Part shown: in pieces, positions 2,444-14,011 of the stretch | Layout of the letters: the number at the start of each line of letters is the position of its first letter | Position numbering within the stretch: position 1 is the first letter of the stretch | Virus record (IMG/VR): IMGVR_UViG_3300020043_004904 | Span: 1-25,686 of that record | Source: a virus | Taxonomy: Duplodnaviria; Caudoviricetes | DNA: 25,686 nucleotides | Reading direction: 5' to 3' (one strand) | Program-made: the position numbers and the translations under genes | Notes under the pieces: model-generated | Database searches by the model: none | Told to the model about the DNA's origin: nothing | What the model saw: the letters and a program-made list of their open reading frames with translations, nothing else

Positions 2444-2797
2444 ATGAGCGATCAAAGCGTATCGGCAATCTTAGCAGCAACTCACAAAACTGATTTGCTG
2501 CTGATTGGTTGCGGTATTGGGCTAACGCTTGGCGTAACGGCTGGGATTTTATACCCGTTGCCCGAAAGCAGCCGTGTTAAGTCGCTGTGGTTTAAGGCTT
2601 TATTGTCGGTCAGTGGCGGCTTGTCCGCATTTGTCTACGCTTTGAGCGAAGGTGCAATCGACGAAATGACGATACTATGGGTCGCTGGTGTCGCATTTGC
2701 TGCTCCAGCTGCTGCCGAGGCATTGCATACCATCACAGTCGGCATCGTCACCGGTGCCATCGAGGGCATTGCCCGTAAGTTGGGGGGCAAATCATGA
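2444..2797 (+). CDS. Putative holin / membrane protein (117 aa)
   Basis: Several hydrophobic segments, basic C-terminus, strong SD (GGGAGGGG), upstream of the endolysin. Confidence 0.6.
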   Translation: MSDQSVSAILAATHKTDLLLIGCGIGLTLGVTAGILYPLPESSRVKSLWFKALLSVSGGLSAFVYALSEGAIDEMTILWVAGVAFAAPAAAEALHTITVGIVTGAIEGIARKLGGKS

Positions 2798-3048
2798 TTT
2801 TTCCACCGTGTTATCTGTGGGCAATCTGCCTGTTGTTGTGTGTTGCTGTTTTATTTATCCCCGACCGATACTGCAATACATCCAAGCGGATAATTAACAG
2901 CATCGTGTTATGTGTGATTATCGCGTCACTTGCAGGCATGCAAGATTACATCACGGTGTCTGTGCTGTTTTTGGTGCTCGCTATTATTGTGTTTGCAGTC
3001 GGCATATTGCACGATCGGTTTGTGGGAGTGAGTCGAAATGAGTTTTGA
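2794..3048 (+). CDS. Second lysis-region membrane protein (holin/antiholin candidate, 84 aa)
   Basis: About three hydrophobic stretches; ATGA overlap with the previous gene; overlaps the endolysin start. Confidence 0.55.
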   Translation: MIFPPCYLWAICLLLCVAVLFIPDRYCNTSKRIINSIVLCVIIASLAGMQDYITVSVLFLVLAIIVFAVGILHDRFVGVSRNEF

Positions 3049-3526
3049 AAAGGCAATTGAGCGCGTCTTGGCTCACGAAGGCGGTTATGTCAACGATCCG
3101 CGTGACAATGGCGGGGAGACCAACTGGGGTATAACCATTGCTGTCGCTCGCGCTAATGGCTACCAAGGCTCAATGCGCACTATGTCCCGCGTGCAAGCCA
3201 AAGCGATCTATCGCAAACAGTATTGGGATGCAGTCAAAGCTGACCAACTGCCTTTTATCATCGCCTACCAGTTGTTTGACGCAGCAGTCAACCATGGCGT
3301 CCGCCGTGCCGTCATGCTGATGCAGCAATCCGTAGGCACAACGCAAGACGGGGTAATTGGTGGTAAGACGATACAAGCGATCAACAGCCGTGATCCACGG
3401 CAACTGGCCTTGCTGTTTAACGCGGTGCGGCTTGAGTTTTATGCAGGATTGGGCGACTTTGCGCATTTTGGCAAAGGATGGACGCGCCGCGTTGCTGCTA
3501 ATCTGCGGTTTGCAGCGACGGATTAA
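3038..3526 (+). CDS. Endolysin, glycoside hydrolase family 108 with C-terminal peptidoglycan-binding region
   Basis: HEGGYVNDPRDNGGETNWGIT catalytic motif, FDAAVNHG, DGVIGGKT and FGKGWTRR motifs. Confidence 0.92.
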   Translation: MSFEKAIERVLAHEGGYVNDPRDNGGETNWGITIAVARANGYQGSMRTMSRVQAKAIYRKQYWDAVKADQLPFIIAYQLFDAAVNHGVRRAVMLMQQSVGTTQDGVIGGKTIQAINSRDPRQLALLFNAVRLEFYAGLGDFAHFGKGWTRRVAANLRFAATD

Positions 3527-3586
3527 TATCCACCGCTTAAACATATCCCAAAAACGTGTCGAAAATACCGCAGAAAATCGACATGA

Positions 3587-3611
3587 AAAAGCCGCAACGT
3601 GTGCGGCCTTT
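3587..3611. terminator. Probable bidirectional intrinsic terminator between convergent operons
   Basis: AAAA-GCCGCA-acgtg-TGCGGC-CTTT hairpin with A and T tails. Confidence 0.6.
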
Positions 3612-3613
3612 GG

Positions 3614-3691
3614 TTACATCTCCACCGCATCATCACCGTCAATATCAGGGGTGTCGTTGCACCCCAAGTCCTGCTCTAGCCAAGGGGTCAT
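3614..3691 (-). CDS. Small acidic peptide MTPWLEQDLGCNDTPDIDGDDAVEM (25 aa; not in ORF track)
   Basis: ATG overlaps the TGA of the upstream gene (ATGA) and the stop lies just before the terminator. Confidence 0.35.
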   Translation of the reverse strand: MTPWLEQDLGCNDTPDIDGDDAVEM

Positions 3692-3978
3692 GGCGCTGTC
3701 CTCAATTCGACTAATTCGTTGTTTCGCGCCATCTCCAAAAACACCTCAAGCTCCGCGTAGTTTTTAATCCAAGCGTGTTTTCCGTTTGCGTGCGGGTAGT
3801 TTGGTGAGTTGCCGTAAAACGCCACGCTGTACTCATAGCGCAAATCTTCTTGAGCGCGAAAACCTTCTTCCCAAAAAGCAATAACGGCGCGAACCTCGCC
3901 ATTTCTGAATGAGTGCCAATCTCGCTCGCTCACAATCCGCTTGTCACAATCGCTTTGTTTCCGATCAAAAAAACTCAT
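3688..3978 (-). CDS. Hypothetical early protein (96 aa)
   Basis: ATGA-coupled member of the leftward operon. Confidence 0.65.
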   Translation of the reverse strand: MSFFDRKQSDCDKRIVSERDWHSFRNGEVRAVIAFWEEGFRAQEDLRYEYSVAFYGNSPNYPHANGKHAWIKNYAELEVFLEMARNNELVELRTAP

Positions 3979-4172
3979 GACCCGCTCCGCGCTTTGGCGA
4001 TGGCTTGCTCAATTGCATCCTCAGCCGCTAGTCGCGCCAGATGCGTGCCGCCTTTGATTTCAGCAGGCACGCGCTGCTCGTCAGCAAGATCAAAAACTTC
4101 TTTCGCGAGGTCGAGTCGCCCAGCGTCAGCTAGATACACGACCGCGTTGTAGATACCACGAACATCTTTCAT
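3975..4172 (-). CDS. Hypothetical early protein (about 65 aa)
   Basis: SD GAGGA upstream; coupled to the next gene. Confidence 0.65.
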   Translation of the reverse strand: MKDVRGIYNAVVYLADAGRLDLAKEVFDLADEQRVPAEIKGGTHLARLAAEDAIEQAIAKARSGS

Positions 4173-4182
4173 CACATCATCC

Positions 4183-4584
4183 TCAATCTAGGTATGCCCC
4201 ACCGAGTGGGGCTGTGGGTAGTGGCATCCAATGGGAGGGGTAGACAACATGCGGAACGTGGGATGTGTTGATTAGCCAACTGCCGCTAAACGCTTCGGTG
4301 TAACGCGCAACAAACGCGCCGCTGTGATCGCCATACTCGCTGTCAATCACCAAAACCCATGTGCCGTCTTTTGGTGCTGACTCCATCCCTCGCCACTCCT
4401 GCGCGGCTTTGAGTGCTGCGAGTTCGGCTTGCAACTTTTCGATCTTGATTGCTTGCATGTGGTTGTCTTGCTCAAATTCAGCAAGGCGGTTTGCAGCATC
4501 TTCGACCCATTCAACTGCGTCCGCGATTTGCTCGTTGTCGTCAAAACCTTCTTCAATGCCTTTGATTACATCTTTTGCTTTCAT
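4183..4584 (-). CDS. DUF551-like phage protein with N-terminal coiled coil
   Basis: WRGMESAPKDGTWVLV ... PSHWMPLPTAP motifs; SD GAGGA. Confidence 0.8.
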   Translation of the reverse strand: MKAKDVIKGIEEGFDDNEQIADAVEWVEDAANRLAEFEQDNHMQAIKIEKLQAELAALKAAQEWRGMESAPKDGTWVLVIDSEYGDHSGAFVARYTEAFSGSWLINTSHVPHVVYPSHWMPLPTAPLGGAYLD

Positions 4585-4620
4585 CTCATCATCCTCAGTT
4601 GCCCCCGAAGGGGCGGTGGG

Positions 4621-4746
4621 TTATCCAAAAAACGGATGGTAATACATCACCAATGCTGTCATCAGCGCGACAAACACGCTGACCATGATCGGTAGTGAGT
4701 CAAACGGGCTAAATAGCCCGTTTTGGTGGTGGTCGTTTAGGCGCAT
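4621..4746 (-). CDS. Small membrane peptide MRLNDHHQNGLFSPFDSLPIMVSVFVALMTALVMYYHPFFG (41 aa; not in ORF track)
   Basis: SD AGGAG upstream, overlaps the end of 4737..5102, one hydrophobic helix. Confidence 0.55.
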   Translation of the reverse strand: MRLNDHHQNGLFSPFDSLPIMVSVFVALMTALVMYYHPFFG

Positions 4747-5102
4747 GCTGCAAGCTCCTTTGCTTTGTCTTGTGCCAAGTTATCAAGATGCTCATTCAAT
4801 GCAGCTGCCTGCGCAAACGTCAATTCGATGGGCATGTCTTGCACGCACCAAACATCATCCGACCAATTGACCGCTTCGGCGTTGCCGATAACGCTTGGCT
4901 CATCGTAAAAAACCGTGTAGTCGCGGTCGTCATACGGTGCAAGACCGTGTACGGTGGCTGTGCATTGCGATGGCGCAAACTCAAGCTTGATATTCAGGCT
5001 GATAAACTCGCAGCCGTTGACAAGATTGAATGCGCAGTTGTCGCCGTCCATTTCGACCGACTTAACGTCGAACTGCATGTGTGGATAGGATGGTGCTTTC
5101 AT
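4737..5102 (-). CDS. Hypothetical acidic early protein (121 aa)
   Basis: SD GAGGAG; ATGA overlap with the upstream gene. Confidence 0.7.
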   Translation of the reverse strand: MKAPSYPHMQFDVKSVEMDGDNCAFNLVNGCEFISLNIKLEFAPSQCTATVHGLAPYDDRDYTVFYDEPSVIGNAEAVNWSDDVWCVQDMPIELTFAQAAALNEHLDNLAQDKAKELAACA

Positions 5103-5698: not shown

Positions 5699-6157
5699 AT
5701 GAAACACGACGAGGTATCAACAGAGCAGCTTGCCGCCAATCTCGAAAAGCAGGTTGAGCAGTTGCGCGACACAATTACGGGCAGCGGCCTTGTTGACGAC
5801 GCTATCGAATCCGCCCACAGCCGTGAAAAAGCCGAGTTGCAAAAAGCTTTGGCTGCGCGGATCAACGAAGTGCAAAACTTGGCAGCAGACGTGGCGTATG
5901 AGCGTGAGAAAAACACGACTCAGGCCGAAAGCATCGGGCAATGCTTGGATGAAATTGACCGCCTAAAACGCCTTGTCGCCCTGCGCACCCAAGACCTTGC
6001 CGTGTATCAAAAAGAGCTTGAAGCAGCCAATAATCGCGCCGACGATGCTGAGTACAAAGTCGCCGAGCTTGAGCGCGATTTGGTTGTACAACGCGCATGG
6101 ACATGGTTGTTTGTCTTGCTCGCCTTTGTCGCTGCTGTTGTTGGGGTGGTCAAATGA
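5699..6157 (+). CDS. Coiled-coil protein with C-terminal transmembrane helix
   Basis: Heptad-like E/Q/L-rich body, C-terminal WTWLFVLLAFVAAVVGVV; SD GAGGA before ATG 5699. Confidence 0.7.
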   Translation: MKHDEVSTEQLAANLEKQVEQLRDTITGSGLVDDAIESAHSREKAELQKALAARINEVQNLAADVAYEREKNTTQAESIGQCLDEIDRLKRLVALRTQDLAVYQKELEAANNRADDAEYKVAELERDLVVQRAWTWLFVLLAFVAAVVGVVK

Positions 6158-6510
6158 TCAAAATGGACAAAACCTTTAAACCGCCAGTTCGCCCATCCAT
6201 TGAGCCAAAGCTGACCGAATCCGCCAAACTTGCCGCCGATATGGCCGCGTTTTTGGCAGCCGGTGGGCAGGTGCAGCAGGTGCAAGCGGTGTTTGACTTT
6301 AAAGATCCGCAAGGCCGCGTCCCTGTGGTCGGTAGTACCGCATACCGCGTGCTGATTGCGCTGTATCGCAATGCTTTGGCAAGCCCACCGCCAAAGCTTA
6401 AAAAGAGCGATGTTGTTAAGGGTGTGGGCTGGCTACGCACTTGGGGCTGGCAGATTGAGTCGATCCCGTTTAAGAGTAGCGCGTTTATTGGCTACAGGCT
6501 TGTACGTTAA
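6154..6510 (+). CDS. Hypothetical regulator: SutA-like motif plus possible winged helix
   Basis: ATGA-coupled start; LAADMAAFLAAGGQVQQV motif; C-terminal LRTWGWQIES...GYRL pattern. Confidence 0.6.
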   Translation: MIKMDKTFKPPVRPSIEPKLTESAKLAADMAAFLAAGGQVQQVQAVFDFKDPQGRVPVVGSTAYRVLIALYRNALASPPPKLKKSDVVKGVGWLRTWGWQIESIPFKSSAFIGYRLVR

Positions 6511-7282: not shown

Positions 7283-7371
7283 CCAACAAAGCAATCATAC
7301 CACACCACCCCACCATGTCTAATCAGTTTTGCTTATTGATTGGAGCGGATTGATAAAGGAAAGTTATTAGA
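7283..7371. repeat. 89-bp direct repeat, copy 1 (contains a leftward promoter)
   Basis: 81/89 identical to 8197-8285 by manual alignment; minus strand TAGACA-16 nt-TATGAT with extended TG. Confidence 0.9.
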
Positions 7372-8065
7372 ACAGGGCTGTAATGTTTACGCCATACACC
7401 TCAAGCCAAGCCTGCGCAGGCCATGACTTTACTTTTCCCCAGCGTGGATCAACCACTTCAATGGGTTTGATTGCTCGATCCTTGCACCACTTCTTGAGCG
7501 GCTGCCATTGGTATTGGTCGCGGGTAGCGTTTTCGATGGCAATGATTGTGGCGTGTGATTTGCATCGGCCTAACTCGGCTTGCAGCGTGTTGGCTTTGCG
7601 TACGGCATGTGATGCGGTCGCCATTGCTGTGGCTTCGCGTCGGTTGCCGATTTCGGCCTTTGTTGCTACTGCATGGTCGCGTTCGATAGCTAGGCGCTCT
7701 TTGTCCTCCTCAGCCTGTACCAAGGCGAGCAAAGCCTCTTTGTATGTCAGGGGCAATGTTACAGGCTGCACAACTTGGTTTTTAGTCGCCATCCAATAAT
7801 CGACAAGCTTGGCGGTGTATTCTGGGCATAGCTGGGCGACGATGATGTATGAGTCGCGTTCGTTGACCACATAGACAGATTCGGTGCGATTGCGACCCAT
7901 TGAATCTTTAAATTGTTCATCCTCAATTTGAGGACGGACAATTACCGCCTGATCTGCAAGGTTTTCGATGGTGCGCTTGACGTTGTCATGGCGCTTTTCG
8001 ACGACGACAGCAATTTGCTTGCTTGTCATGGTCTGGCTGGGTGTTGCATTGATCAGGGTGTGCAT
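7367..8065 (-). CDS. Rha-family phage regulatory / antirepressor protein
   Basis: TMTSKQIAVVVEKRHDNVKRTIE, DSMGR..YVVNERDS, AKLVDYW, LPLTYKEAL and KAEIGNRREATAMA motifs; start could be 8065 or 8074. Confidence 0.85.
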   Translation of the reverse strand: MHTLINATPSQTMTSKQIAVVVEKRHDNVKRTIENLADQAVIVRPQIEDEQFKDSMGRNRTESVYVVNERDSYIIVAQLCPEYTAKLVDYWMATKNQVVQPVTLPLTYKEALLALVQAEEDKERLAIERDHAVATKAEIGNRREATAMATASHAVRKANTLQAELGRCKSHATIIAIENATRDQYQWQPLKKWCKDRAIKPIEVVDPRWGKVKSWPAQAWLEVYGVNITALF

Positions 8066-8078
8066 ATTTTGCATCCAT

Positions 8079-8192
8079 AAAAAAGCCTTAGATTTTGCAG
8101 TAAGGTGAAAGAGGGTCACGACACCCACTTACTGCAAATCTAAGGCTATTCGTTTGTCGTGATTGCTGTAGCGGTGCTGATCGACTTTCACC
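8079..8192 (-). ncRNA. C4-like antisense/attenuator leader of the Rha gene
   Basis: 20-bp stem (8084-8104 with 8128-8147) followed by a U-tract; two 8-nt boxes at the loop are complementary to boxes at 8155-8162 and 8185-8192. Confidence 0.6.
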
Positions 8193-8196
8193 CCGA

Positions 8197-8285
8197 CCAA
8201 CAAAGCAATCATACCACACCATCCCATTCTGTCTAATCAATTTTGCTTATGGATTGGCGTGGATTGATAAAGGAAAGTTATTAGA
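8197..8285. repeat. 89-bp direct repeat, copy 2 (contains the leftward promoter of the Rha leader)
   Basis: 81/89 identical to 7283-7371. Confidence 0.9.
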
Positions 8286-10933: not shown

Positions 10934-11518
10934 ATGTTGAAATCAGAACAGATCAACGAACTGAGTGCGGCGCTTGCCAAGGCTCAATCTGAGATCGAAA
11001 ACGCAAGCAAGACCAGCAGCAATCCTCACTTTAAATCCAAGTATGCCGACCTAGCCGAAATCCTGAACACGGTTCGCCCCGTGTTTAGCGCACACGGCTT
11101 AGCTATCGTGCAAATGCCGAGTTTTGAAAGCGGTATTGCTCATGTCGAAACCTTGTTGACTCACAGCAGTGGCCAATGGATCAGCAATGTGTGCAGCGCA
11201 CCTGTTGGCAAGCAAGACGCGCAAGGCGTTGGTAGCGCAATCACCTATCTGCGTCGTTATAGCTTGGCAGCGTTTGCAGGCGTGGCTCAAGAGGATGACG
11301 ATGGCAATAGCGCCGTAGGAAAACATGCGCCACAACAGCAGGCAGCAAAGCCACAACAACAACCAATGACCGCCGAAATCATGGAAAAGGCTGCGCAGTC
11401 GATCCGTGACGGCAAAGCAAACGTGCAGCGTATTGCTAAGGCCTACATCCTGAGCGACGAGCAGCGAGCGGCGCTGATCGCTATTGAAACCCAAGCACTT
11501 GCGGAGCAACAAGCATGA
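10934..11518 (+). CDS. ERF-family single-strand annealing recombinase
   Basis: [22 protein letters not shown] and [20 protein letters not shown] motifs. Confidence 0.92.
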
Positions 11519-12517: not shown

Positions 12518-13021
12518 ATGAACCTATACGACTACGGCGACGAACTCGCCGCCAAGATTGCCGCCGTCCAGCAGATGATCGAGGATGGCGAGGAAGTTGA
12601 GGGCAAAGCGGTGCAGGCCGCTTTGCGTGACATGGTAAGCGCCGAGGGCGATTTGCACGCCAAAGCTGCAAACGTGGCGCTGTATATCCGTGAGCTTAAG
12701 GCGCAGGCCGAAGCAGTCAAGGCCGAACAAGATCGGTTGGCAAAACGTCGAGCAAGCCTTGTGCGTCGGGCTGAATCGCTCACTGACTATCTGCTGGGCG
12801 CATTGCAACAACACGGCATTGATCAAGTTAAGACGCCGTTAGTGACGGTGTCGGTGCGGATCAATCCGTGGTCAGTTGAAGTGGCAGACCCAAAGGCATT
12901 GCCGCCTGAATATCTGACGGTTAAGGTTGAGCCGAACAAAAAGGCGCTGTTGGCTGCGCGTGAGTCGGTGCAGTTTGAGGGCGTGACATATCAAAAATCC
13001 ATCAGCTTACGCATCAGTTAA
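12518..13021 (+). CDS. Siphovirus Gp157-family protein
   Basis: KAANVALYIREL..KAEQDRLAKRR..LTDYL..VKTPLVTVSVRINPWSV..LPPEY..EPNKKAL pattern. Confidence 0.85.
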   Translation: MNLYDYGDELAAKIAAVQQMIEDGEEVEGKAVQAALRDMVSAEGDLHAKAANVALYIRELKAQAEAVKAEQDRLAKRRASLVRRAESLTDYLLGALQQHGIDQVKTPLVTVSVRINPWSVEVADPKALPPEYLTVKVEPNKKALLAARESVQFEGVTYQKSISLRIS

Positions 13022-13069
13022 TCAGTAAAACTGATTGGACGAATTGAGCGGTTTTTGACAATATCACTT

Positions 13070-13146
13070 GTGTGGCTAGGAGGCATCCGAAAGCGTGAAA
13101 CGTCTGGCACGTTGCCACACACTCCACTAGACGAAACCTGTAGACG
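13070..13146 (+). ncRNA. Second three-way-junction antisense-type RNA, forming the leader of the CRISPR array
   Basis: Closing stem GTGTGGC/GCCACAC; loop AAACGTCTGG pairs with CTAGACG (13127) and TAGACG (13141). Confidence 0.55.
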
Positions 13147-13148
13147 AG
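13117..13148 (+). repeat. Spacer-sized flanking direct repeat, upstream copy (preceded by CC)
   Basis: Contains CACTAGACGAAACCT (13125-13139), identical to 13425-13439; abuts repeat 1. Confidence 0.85.
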
Positions 13149-13416
13149 GTTCACCACCGTGTAGGTGGTTTAGAAGTGCTGTACTTGTCATTGATCATCG
13201 TTAAAGCTGTTCACCACCGTGTAGGTGGTTTAGAAGTATAACGCCTGCGTTTTGATCGTCCATCATGCGTTCACCACCGTGTAGGTGGTTTAGAAGACAA
13301 CGGGACACAAGCCGCGATAAGGGCAGGCGTTCACCACCGTGTAGGTGGTTTAGAAGTGAATAACGCCGGATCGCAGCCGATGCCAGATGTTCACCACCGT
13401 GTAGGTGGTTTAGAAA
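13149..13416 (+). CRISPR. Type I-F CRISPR mini-array without cas genes: 5 repeats, 4 spacers
   Basis: GTTCACCACCGTGTAGGTGGTTTAGAA(G/A), 28 nt, at 13149, 13209, 13269, 13329 and 13389; unique 32-nt spacers; CCACC-GTGTA-GGTGG hairpin and 8-nt TTTAGAAR tail match the Cas6f-type repeat layout. Confidence 0.97.
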
Positions 13417-13448
13417 ACACTCAACACTAGACGAAACCTTAGACGGGG
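13417..13448 (+). repeat. Spacer-sized flanking direct repeat, downstream copy
   Basis: Abuts repeat 5; related to 13117-13148; carries the SD-like GGGG of the next gene. Confidence 0.85.
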
Positions 13449-13453
13449 TTTGT

Positions 13454-13621
13454 ATGTTCAAGTTTTTACTGATCGCCTGCGTTGTGACAAAAGGCGGTAC
13501 ATATCAAGATTGTGCACCAGGCGCGATTTATCAAACACAAGCCGAATGCTATGCAAGCGCCGCAGTCGTTGAAGATGACGCGATGGCGGACGGGTTTTTT
13601 TGTGCGTGCTGTTTGTGTTGA
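13454..13621 (+). CDS. Small Cys-containing protein, DUF1482/YebW-like pattern (55 aa; not in ORF track)
   Basis: MFKFLLIACVVTKGGTYQDC...IYQTQAECYA: hydrophobic N-terminus and spaced cysteines; family call tentative. Confidence 0.55.
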   Translation: MFKFLLIACVVTKGGTYQDCAPGAIYQTQAECYASAAVVEDDAMADGFFCACCLC

Positions 13622-13630
13622 GGTGGAGTG

Positions 13631-14011
13631 ATGAGTCTACAAGGACAGCTCGCAATCGCGCAGCGCAAAGGGCAAAAGCATTTTACGTTTTGCTACAACG
13701 TGGCAGACATGGCGGATGCTAAAGACGTGCGAACCGCAATGCACGGAAATGACTTGGCTAAAAACGCATGGTTGTGTAACGGCTATTTTTGGTGGTCGGC
13801 GGTTATTACCGTGTTTAGCCCAAACGCTGATGGCACGGTGACGGAAGTCAAGGCGTACTGCCGCGATACGATGCGCCGCCGTCCGCACGACTTAACAAAA
13901 GACCTGCACAAGGCGATTGAGCGGCTACACAAAGAGCATCCTGATGCTGATATGTCAATCAGCACAGTATCGGTCACTTGCAGCGTGGTGTGCCCAAAAT
14001 GGAATTCTTGA
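13631..14011 (+). CDS. Hypothetical protein (126 aa)
   Basis: SD GAGGTGGAG; packed in the operon. Confidence 0.65.
   Translation: MSLQGQLAIAQRKGQKHFTFCYNVADMADAKDVRTAMHGNDLAKNAWLCNGYFWWSAVITVFSPNADGTVTEVKAYCRDTMRRRPHDLTKDLHKAIERLHKEHPDADMSISTVSVTCSVVCPKWNS

Follow-up and report, generated by a model that had tools for sequence, protein, structure and literature searches.

A type I-F mini-array in a P22-like phage contig without cas genes, probably captured by recombination at the phage's own protospacer

The window analyzed here is the whole 25,686-nucleotide (nt) viral contig IMGVR_UViG_3300020043_004904 (Caudoviricetes). [quoted passage not shown] The array is flanked by two copies of a spacer-sized phage site that occurs once, behind a protospacer-adjacent motif (PAM), in close relatives lacking the array, and it was probably captured by recombination at this protospacer of the phage itself. 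The full explanation favored here is that a leaderless fragment of a host array entered the phage through a crossover between a host spacer and the phage site and now provides guides against co-infecting elements; we assign it a probability of roughly 0.55. The sequence-only reading of this DNA had recognized the array but overlooked that its flanks are duplicated and PAM-anchored and that the site is empty in relatives, features that reveal the acquisition route.

The type I-F array is real and, as far as these 25.7 kb show, belongs with the cas-less phage mini-arrays already known. Its repeats start at 13149, 13209, 13269, 13329 and 13389 with a period of 60/60/60/60 nt, and are identical save for the last base, G in repeats 1-4 and A in repeat 5; the coordinates, the exact spacing, the single variable base and the uniform 32-nt spacers (four of four) had all been described correctly from the letters of the window. 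The Rfam family CRISPR-DR4 (RF01317) matches repeat 5 with 36.2 bits (gathering threshold 35) and repeats 1-4 with 32.8 bits each (E 2.7e-5). The repeat fold has a 5-bp stem (-9.8 kcal/mol) and an 8-nt 3' handle, and retains C6 and G20, which are required for Cas6f (PMC10651486). The earlier view of the array as intact is upheld, as the C6-G20 stem is preserved, the spacers are full-length and targets preceded by CC exist for all four of them. Assignment of the final G to the spacer as its first base was ruled out because the targets resume directly after CC at 13177, 13237, 13297 and 13357, and it is also contradicted by host arrays with AAG-ending repeats.

The route of acquisition can be followed in the flanking DNA. 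The Gp157/Gam-like gene upstream of the array (12518-13021, plus strand; PHROGs, Pfam) served as the anchor for finding relatives and retrieved five viral loci, four of them at 96-97% identity. The array is absent from all three close relatives that reach the site (L011-L013; L010 stops short of it, and L014 is distant). In these empty relatives the insertion site is present once, after CC, whereas in the window it is present twice, flanking the array; the distance from CC to the downstream anchor is 33, 32 and 34 nt in the former versus 332 nt in the latter. The CC of the window (13115-13116, plus strand) occupies the I-F PAM position of the site, inside the stem of an upstream hairpin, and CC is the PAM of type I-F1 (10.1101/2023.03.03.530964). 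The left copy of the site (13117-13148, plus strand) covers exactly 32 nt from CC to repeat 1 and has one mismatch to L011. The right copy (13417-13448, plus strand) lies directly 3' of repeat 5, with the repeat in place of the PAM, and has one mismatch to L012, where the sequence is preceded by CC; it rebuilds the start region of the next open reading frame (ORF). Contigs were also placed from seven wastewater runs (X1-X5, X7 and X11) of 24 listed, and figures given for them refer to the pieces listed. Positions 13417-13461 are matched with no mismatches in X1 and X11, and loose contig ends finishing in CC directly before 13417 were found in X1, X3 and X5. Given the single CC-anchored site in relatives and its two copies in the window, the array occupies a PAM-anchored, spacer-sized phage site. 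The DNA upstream of the array is phage sequence, 88-89% identical to the empty relatives, and no host-type leader was found upstream of repeat 1.

The upstream hairpin is a predicted branched structure (13069-13121, plus strand) that is kept in the three empty relatives, and its loop is complementary to two boxes within the insertion site, a layout which we take to be C4/CI-like. It is no more stable than shuffled sequences (z -0.13) and matched no Rfam family, nor was there a match to Rfam c4 at E up to 10. Two alternative side stems of this hairpin occur among relatives, and Pseudomonas phage PS-1 and Klebsiella Jedunaviruses also have a 20-21-nt piece of it in their intergenic DNA (E 2-6). 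Allelic variation is concentrated in the 8 nt after CC (13117-13124 and its equivalents in relatives), while CC itself is held in the RNA stem; CRISPR escape, or else slippage of AC repeats, would act on these variable positions.

The left and right copies share four exact blocks, of 4, 6, 15 and 6 nt. The 15-nt block (13125-13139, plus strand, and again 13425-13439) is the putative crossover interval: a single crossover within it accounts for a 300-nt insert, that is five whole repeat-spacer units, and for a 32-nt donor spacer starting at the PAM position, and 109 of the 117 spacers in related host arrays are 32 nt long. A crossover in the 4-nt block also leads to a 32-nt spacer but with little homology. 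The two 6-nt blocks lead to spacers of 30 and 31 nt, and a crossover in the 6-nt box, for which the length would be 31 nt, was rejected on that ground. Among 27 matches of the 15-nt block, relatives appeared only as L011, L024 and L037, which are contigs of L011-L013. One X11 contig (depth 7.8) equals the window minus 300 nt at this very block, with the joint from 13124 to 13425 and 2+2 other letters, and an X11 allele that also occurs in X2 has the start of the right copy and an extra G behind 13439, with one other letter. The X11 haplotypes resemble both implied parents, the phage allele and the spacer allele, and lend modest support to the exchange. Against the implied spacer, the left copy has mismatches at positions 5, 7 and 8; it has kept the PAM with a mismatched seed and the right copy has kept the seed but lost the PAM, so that neither would be attacked. 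As the site is single in close relatives and doubled around the array, capture via a host spacer aimed at the site is likely, and the odds that a single crossover specifically was responsible are about even.

It is plausible that the host carried a 32-nt spacer against the phage site and that the phage held a seed-escape allele of that site. The donor may have been a circle of five units that had looped out from the host array, or an array segment bounded by a duplicated spacer, and would have recombined with the phage inside the 15-nt shared block, plausibly aided by Erf, a single-strand annealing recombinase encoded at 10934-11518 (plus strand; PHROGs, Pfam) and a candidate catalyst of such a short-homology crossover. 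The product would be stable, with neither site copy targeted and with the upstream hairpin and the start of the next gene preserved by the duplication. Read-through transcription would then yield four 60-nt guides as host Cas6f cuts the phage early transcript, and these guides would direct host Cascade at co-infecting elements. It has been hypothesized that phage mini-arrays lacking a leader might acquire spacers when they recombine with host arrays (PMC6858448 and PMC7099407, citing Faure 2019). No report of a duplicated PAM-anchored insertion site was found in literature titles and abstract openings, mostly outside subscription journals and with supplements not covered. The Faure 2019 study may show such junctions, and Table S10 of 10.1101/2023.03.03.530964 could list this contig.

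Targets preceded directly by CC were found in wastewater contigs for all four spacers, a check that had been proposed along with the discovery of the array. Spacer S1 (13177-13208, plus strand, as are the others) has X1 targets with 0 and 1 mismatch, S2 (13237-13268) has targets in X3 and X7, S3 (13297-13328) has a target in X7, and S4 (13357-13388) has a target in X1 with 1 mismatch and is covered in X7; the mismatch counts of 0-1 are those among the matches listed for S1 and S4. Given a CC frequency of 0.050 in the window, four CC out of four would arise by chance with a probability of about 6e-6. In X7 the depths of the S2-S4 targets are about 218, 168 and 136, as summed contig figures rather than copy numbers, with the empty relatives far deeper there, and these values are compatible with the location of the three targets in one element. 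Read in frame, the S2 target contains what we take to be an AAA_25-type helicase motif and the S3 target presumably a terminase small-subunit motif, and a minus-strand frame of the S4 target is assumed here to encode a primase-polymerase-like motif; these labels point to a phage or satellite. Within the window S1-S4 showed no self-match better than 12 mismatches, and S3 did not match the phage's own terS. Judging from the wastewater targets and the self-search, the spacers are aimed at other elements and not at the carrier, the element type resting on the presumed motifs. Spacer seeds in viral contigs gave 17, 5, 2 and 2 matches that were all dismissed as chance, the best full-length alignments having at least 8-9 mismatches. 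The array region had short weak matches only among phage and plasmid records; a search of the spacers against 401 genomes of the G015 family matched 14 genomes, mostly via the repeats, with 9 mismatches in the best spacer match.

The repeat recurs within the phage clade. Its exact sequence had no matches in viral contigs, and the exact 27-nt repeat core had five in metagenomes, three in related phages and two in unrelated sequences whose repeats end in AAA. The related phages L015, L016 and L018 carry it at another locus, near window positions 2450-4750, where they are 83-100% identical to the window. An AAG-ending solitary repeat is found in L015 (1024-1051), and AAG-ending two-repeat mini-arrays are found in L016 (657-743, minus strand) and L018 (52-138). 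The 32 nt before the repeat are common to L015 and L018, which come from separate assemblies, with one substitution, and in L018 they are preceded exactly by CC, in a CC-rich stretch (10 of 50). The 32 nt after the last repeat of L016 equal the 3' end of the L015 AntA gene with one mismatch and are preceded there by CCT, one base off the PAM. An empty-site search with the right flank of L015 returned only two unrelated 17-nt matches. At this second locus, the repeats of the three phages have as neighbors an AntA antirepressor gene or the ends of truncated genes. An X1 contig has an identical repeat fused to window position 13562, which has CC before it (depth 18.8); as this repeat is attached to a CC-PAM piece of the phage, a system with this repeat samples this clade. 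We tentatively suggest, at somewhat below even odds, that phages recurrently exchange a PAM for a repeat and acquire CRISPR components in a single step of protospacer-spacer recombination, the clade having kept a series from the solitary repeat of L015 through the two-repeat forms of L016 and L018 to the five-unit array. If so, Racr-type repeats and mini-arrays would have a common origin, legible from the PAM-anchored junction signature.

As for function, the array is located on the plus strand between the Gp157/Gam-like gene and a 55-aa ORF, amid plus-strand replication and recombination genes, in agreement with its earlier placement on the sense strand of the early operon, and it would be transcribed by read-through from this operon. 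Predicted Cas6f cleavage would release four canonical guides and an upstream fragment analogous to the inhibitory one of RacrIF1, in which inhibition resides in the product upstream of the Cas6f cut (PMC10651486). Activity against competitors is given a slight preference here. Of the same origin but different in function, the array might be neutral, carried along as a passenger, or might act as a Racr-like sponge, Cas6f/Cas7f being tied up by the part of the transcript upstream of repeat 1, which has a 3' hairpin and no 5' handle; this appears distinctly the weaker option. The inhibitory upstream product of RacrIF1 and the solitary repeat of L015 speak in its favor, as does the dominance of array-free relatives in all seven runs examined, from which the array may be rare or neutral. 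On the other hand, four intact spacers with 0-1 mismatch to their targets where counts are listed, and the recurrence of repeat-bearing loci in the clade, argue for guides, and the sponge and guide roles are compatible with each other. Cracr-type matches of CC plus seed numbered 0 in five CRISPR loci (L128, L129, L001, L003 and L005), among which the true host locus is possibly not included.

Several observations weigh against capture from a host array and the proposed use of its guides. No donor array with S1-S4 or the implied spacer was found in GTDB, among the metagenome repeat matches or in the 401 genomes. The left-junction CC rule fails in L015 and L016, and the insertion site is a mosaic among relatives, so that the parent-like haplotypes discriminate weakly. 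The final A of repeat 5 (13416) differs from the G of the nine other phage-borne repeats seen and is left unexplained. No plus-strand promoter or terminator was found in 12900-13800, and the target labels are presumed motifs on 10-residue frames. Among the pieces listed, none joins a phage arm to repeat 1 or repeat 5, as might be expected of an assembly chimera, in which an assembler passes from phage to host array and back via spacer-protospacer identity. Such a path would leave the same junction signature, and at the left join the shared stretch could be as long as 35 nt (32 plus GTT). A chimera nevertheless seems improbable, as one repeat junction is common to the separate assemblies of L015 and L018 with 1 substitution, the repeat recurs in three other related contigs, and no long host array with the exact repeat is among the five metagenome matches; it would also require that two alleles of the phage and two spacers were present and that the assembler preferred this path to direct ones supported by reads. 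The array is thus very probably a genuine phage locus.

Other origins for a genuine locus are each unlikely to differing degrees. A host may have held, from one PAM, a separate spacer for each phage allele, the two lying four spacers from each other, with break repair copying the interval between them into the phage. Both flanks are indeed whole 32-mers after CC, natural alleles exist at one mismatch from each of them, an allele identical to the right copy exists as well, and the left and right flanks of L016 and L018 are unrelated, as two different spacers would give. This scheme, however, requires two acquisitions at one PAM and would leave the left copy as a perfect PAM-flanked target in the donor host, whereas a single crossover yields equal lengths from one spacer; we regard it as unlikely, although less so than an assembly chimera. 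The array may instead be a frozen adaptation intermediate: host Cas1-Cas2/3 would have linked the leader-side repeat to an untrimmed phage prespacer at its PAM-distal end, and the right arm would have been restored when recombination took place at an older spacer used for priming. The left junction of exactly CC, 32 nt and repeat, seen in L018 as well, is as expected from such an event, and polar growth of the array agrees with a last repeat that has a variant base. This proposal involves two rare steps, lacks direct support and meets the difficulty that every repeat of the other phage-borne copies ends in G, and is considered very unlikely. The least probable origin is growth in place, by which a phage-borne repeat gained spacers from the host adaptation machinery; L015 and L018 do share a left junction with 1 versus 2 repeats, but there is no host-type leader, the upstream DNA is ordinary phage sequence, and the site duplication is left unaccounted for.

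Several known systems are close to this locus. Viral mini-arrays have been catalogued in number, with 835 two-repeat and 297 longer cases (10.1101/2023.03.03.530964). Cas-less phage mini-arrays (PMC6858448, PMC7099407 and PMC8616872) are similar in lacking cas genes (for the window array, within these 25.7 kb) as well as a host leader, in a repeat of apparently host type, in spacers against other mobile elements and in presumed dependence on host Cas proteins. The window array differs from them in having four spacers instead of the usual one, none of which matches the carrier's own relatives among the loci checked, and in its duplicated, PAM-anchored insertion site. Spacer-target recombination is known from transduction (PMC8616872, citing Watson 2018 and Varble 2019), and CRISPR-transducing particles resemble the present case in recombination between a host spacer and a phage target; these particles, however, move host cas DNA, whereas the window has a short array inserted into the phage's own genome, where the genes on both sides of it are intact. 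The mini-arrays of the Sulfolobales viruses SPV1/SPV2 likewise provide virus-borne guides that borrow host effectors in inter-virus conflict, but they carry host-like leaders with promoters (PMC6858448), which the window array lacks. Racr solitary units (PMC10651486) have in common with the window, and with the single repeat of L015, a phage-borne I-F repeat with a C6-G20 stem, while the window has five repeats, full spacers and real targets. Cracr and other crRNA (CRISPR RNA)-like regulatory mini-arrays (10.1101/2024.10.29.618823, 10.1101/2023.03.03.530964) are also phage-borne I-F repeat arrays; their spacers are short or partly complementary and directed against cas promoters, in contrast to 32-nt spacers that match mobile elements.

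The origin of leaderless phage mini-arrays and solitary repeats has so far been a hypothesis in the cited texts (PMC6858448, PMC7099407), and the present locus offers a base-level footprint with empty-site relatives. A preserved capture footprint makes the proposed origin testable: its signature consists of PAM, spacer length and repeat on the left and of repeat and PAM-less protospacer on the right, and the viral mini-arrays catalogued so far, approximately 1,100, can be scored for it. Junctions of this kind may mislead assembly filters and host prediction from spacers, and the locus suggests that a phage can obtain the weapons of its host as a result of CRISPR pressure.

The host likely belongs to Moraxellaceae, on sequence comparisons. 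The nearest named cellular DnaB proteins (43-46%) are mostly from Acinetobacter, with others from Moraxella and Faucicola. Repeats within 3 mismatches occur in six of the 401 genomes of the G001 family (titled Moraxellaceae), three of them ending in AAG. The I-F locus of G048 encodes Cas3f, Cas1f, Csy4, Csy3 and Csy2 above cut-off with a weak Csy1, and the repeat beside it has two mismatches that form one compensatory stem pair. The presumed availability of compatible I-F machinery has support in the likely host family, in complete loci with G-ending repeats two stem changes away. The expectation that the repeat would identify the host failed, as there were 0 exact matches in GTDB genomes and the near matches are spread over six taxa (Moraxellaceae, Psychrobacter, Rheinheimera, Gilliamella, Endozoicomonas and Oxalobacter). 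Two sets of 117 and 183 distinct host spacers, compared with the phage and seven relatives, had 8 mismatches at best. No close prophage was present in the 401 genomes, the best being a 75% Erf match in G015. An AAG-ending I-F array adjoins parA on a 9-kb plasmid-like contig of this genome (L130:1-280, G015 contig 315), in which Cas6f was not found. The I-F loci L128 and L129 have cas1 downstream of cas6f, a divergent cas2/3 and repeats ending in AAG, and their Csy1 is very distant.

The carrier is a P22-like phage with terminase, portal, scaffold, coat, O-like initiator, DnaB, Erf, SSB and Gp157 genes (PHROGs, Pfam), and its coat protein is 31-43% identical to listed P22-type coats. The phage arms around the array are 86-99% identical to phage relatives. 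No match to cas or integrase families was obtained in 45 ORFs scanned with PHROGs, 23 window ORFs with Pfam and 29 ORFs with PADLOC, which confirms the reported absence of cas genes from the window; as the record consists of this contig only and looks partial, the term cas-less holds for these 25.7 kb only. The 55-aa ORF downstream of the array (13454-13621, plus strand) contains the CC-preceded protospacer at 13562 and had no PHROGs or Pfam family, with an Atlas lead to DUF1482 at 0.84 only, and Atlas searches with the two ORFs downstream of the array gave no usable match. At 3526-3690, the junction of the leftward operon and the lysis genes is without an integrase, though repressor-like and Rha genes are present. 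The ORF at 6097-6510 (plus strand) has a SutA RNA-polymerase-binding domain (Pfam PF20661, E 3e-8) and possibly encodes a phage transcription factor. An 89-nt direct repeat (91% identical; 7283-7371 and 8197-8285) flanks the Rha-type gene at 7367-8128, in the manner of an exchangeable cassette.
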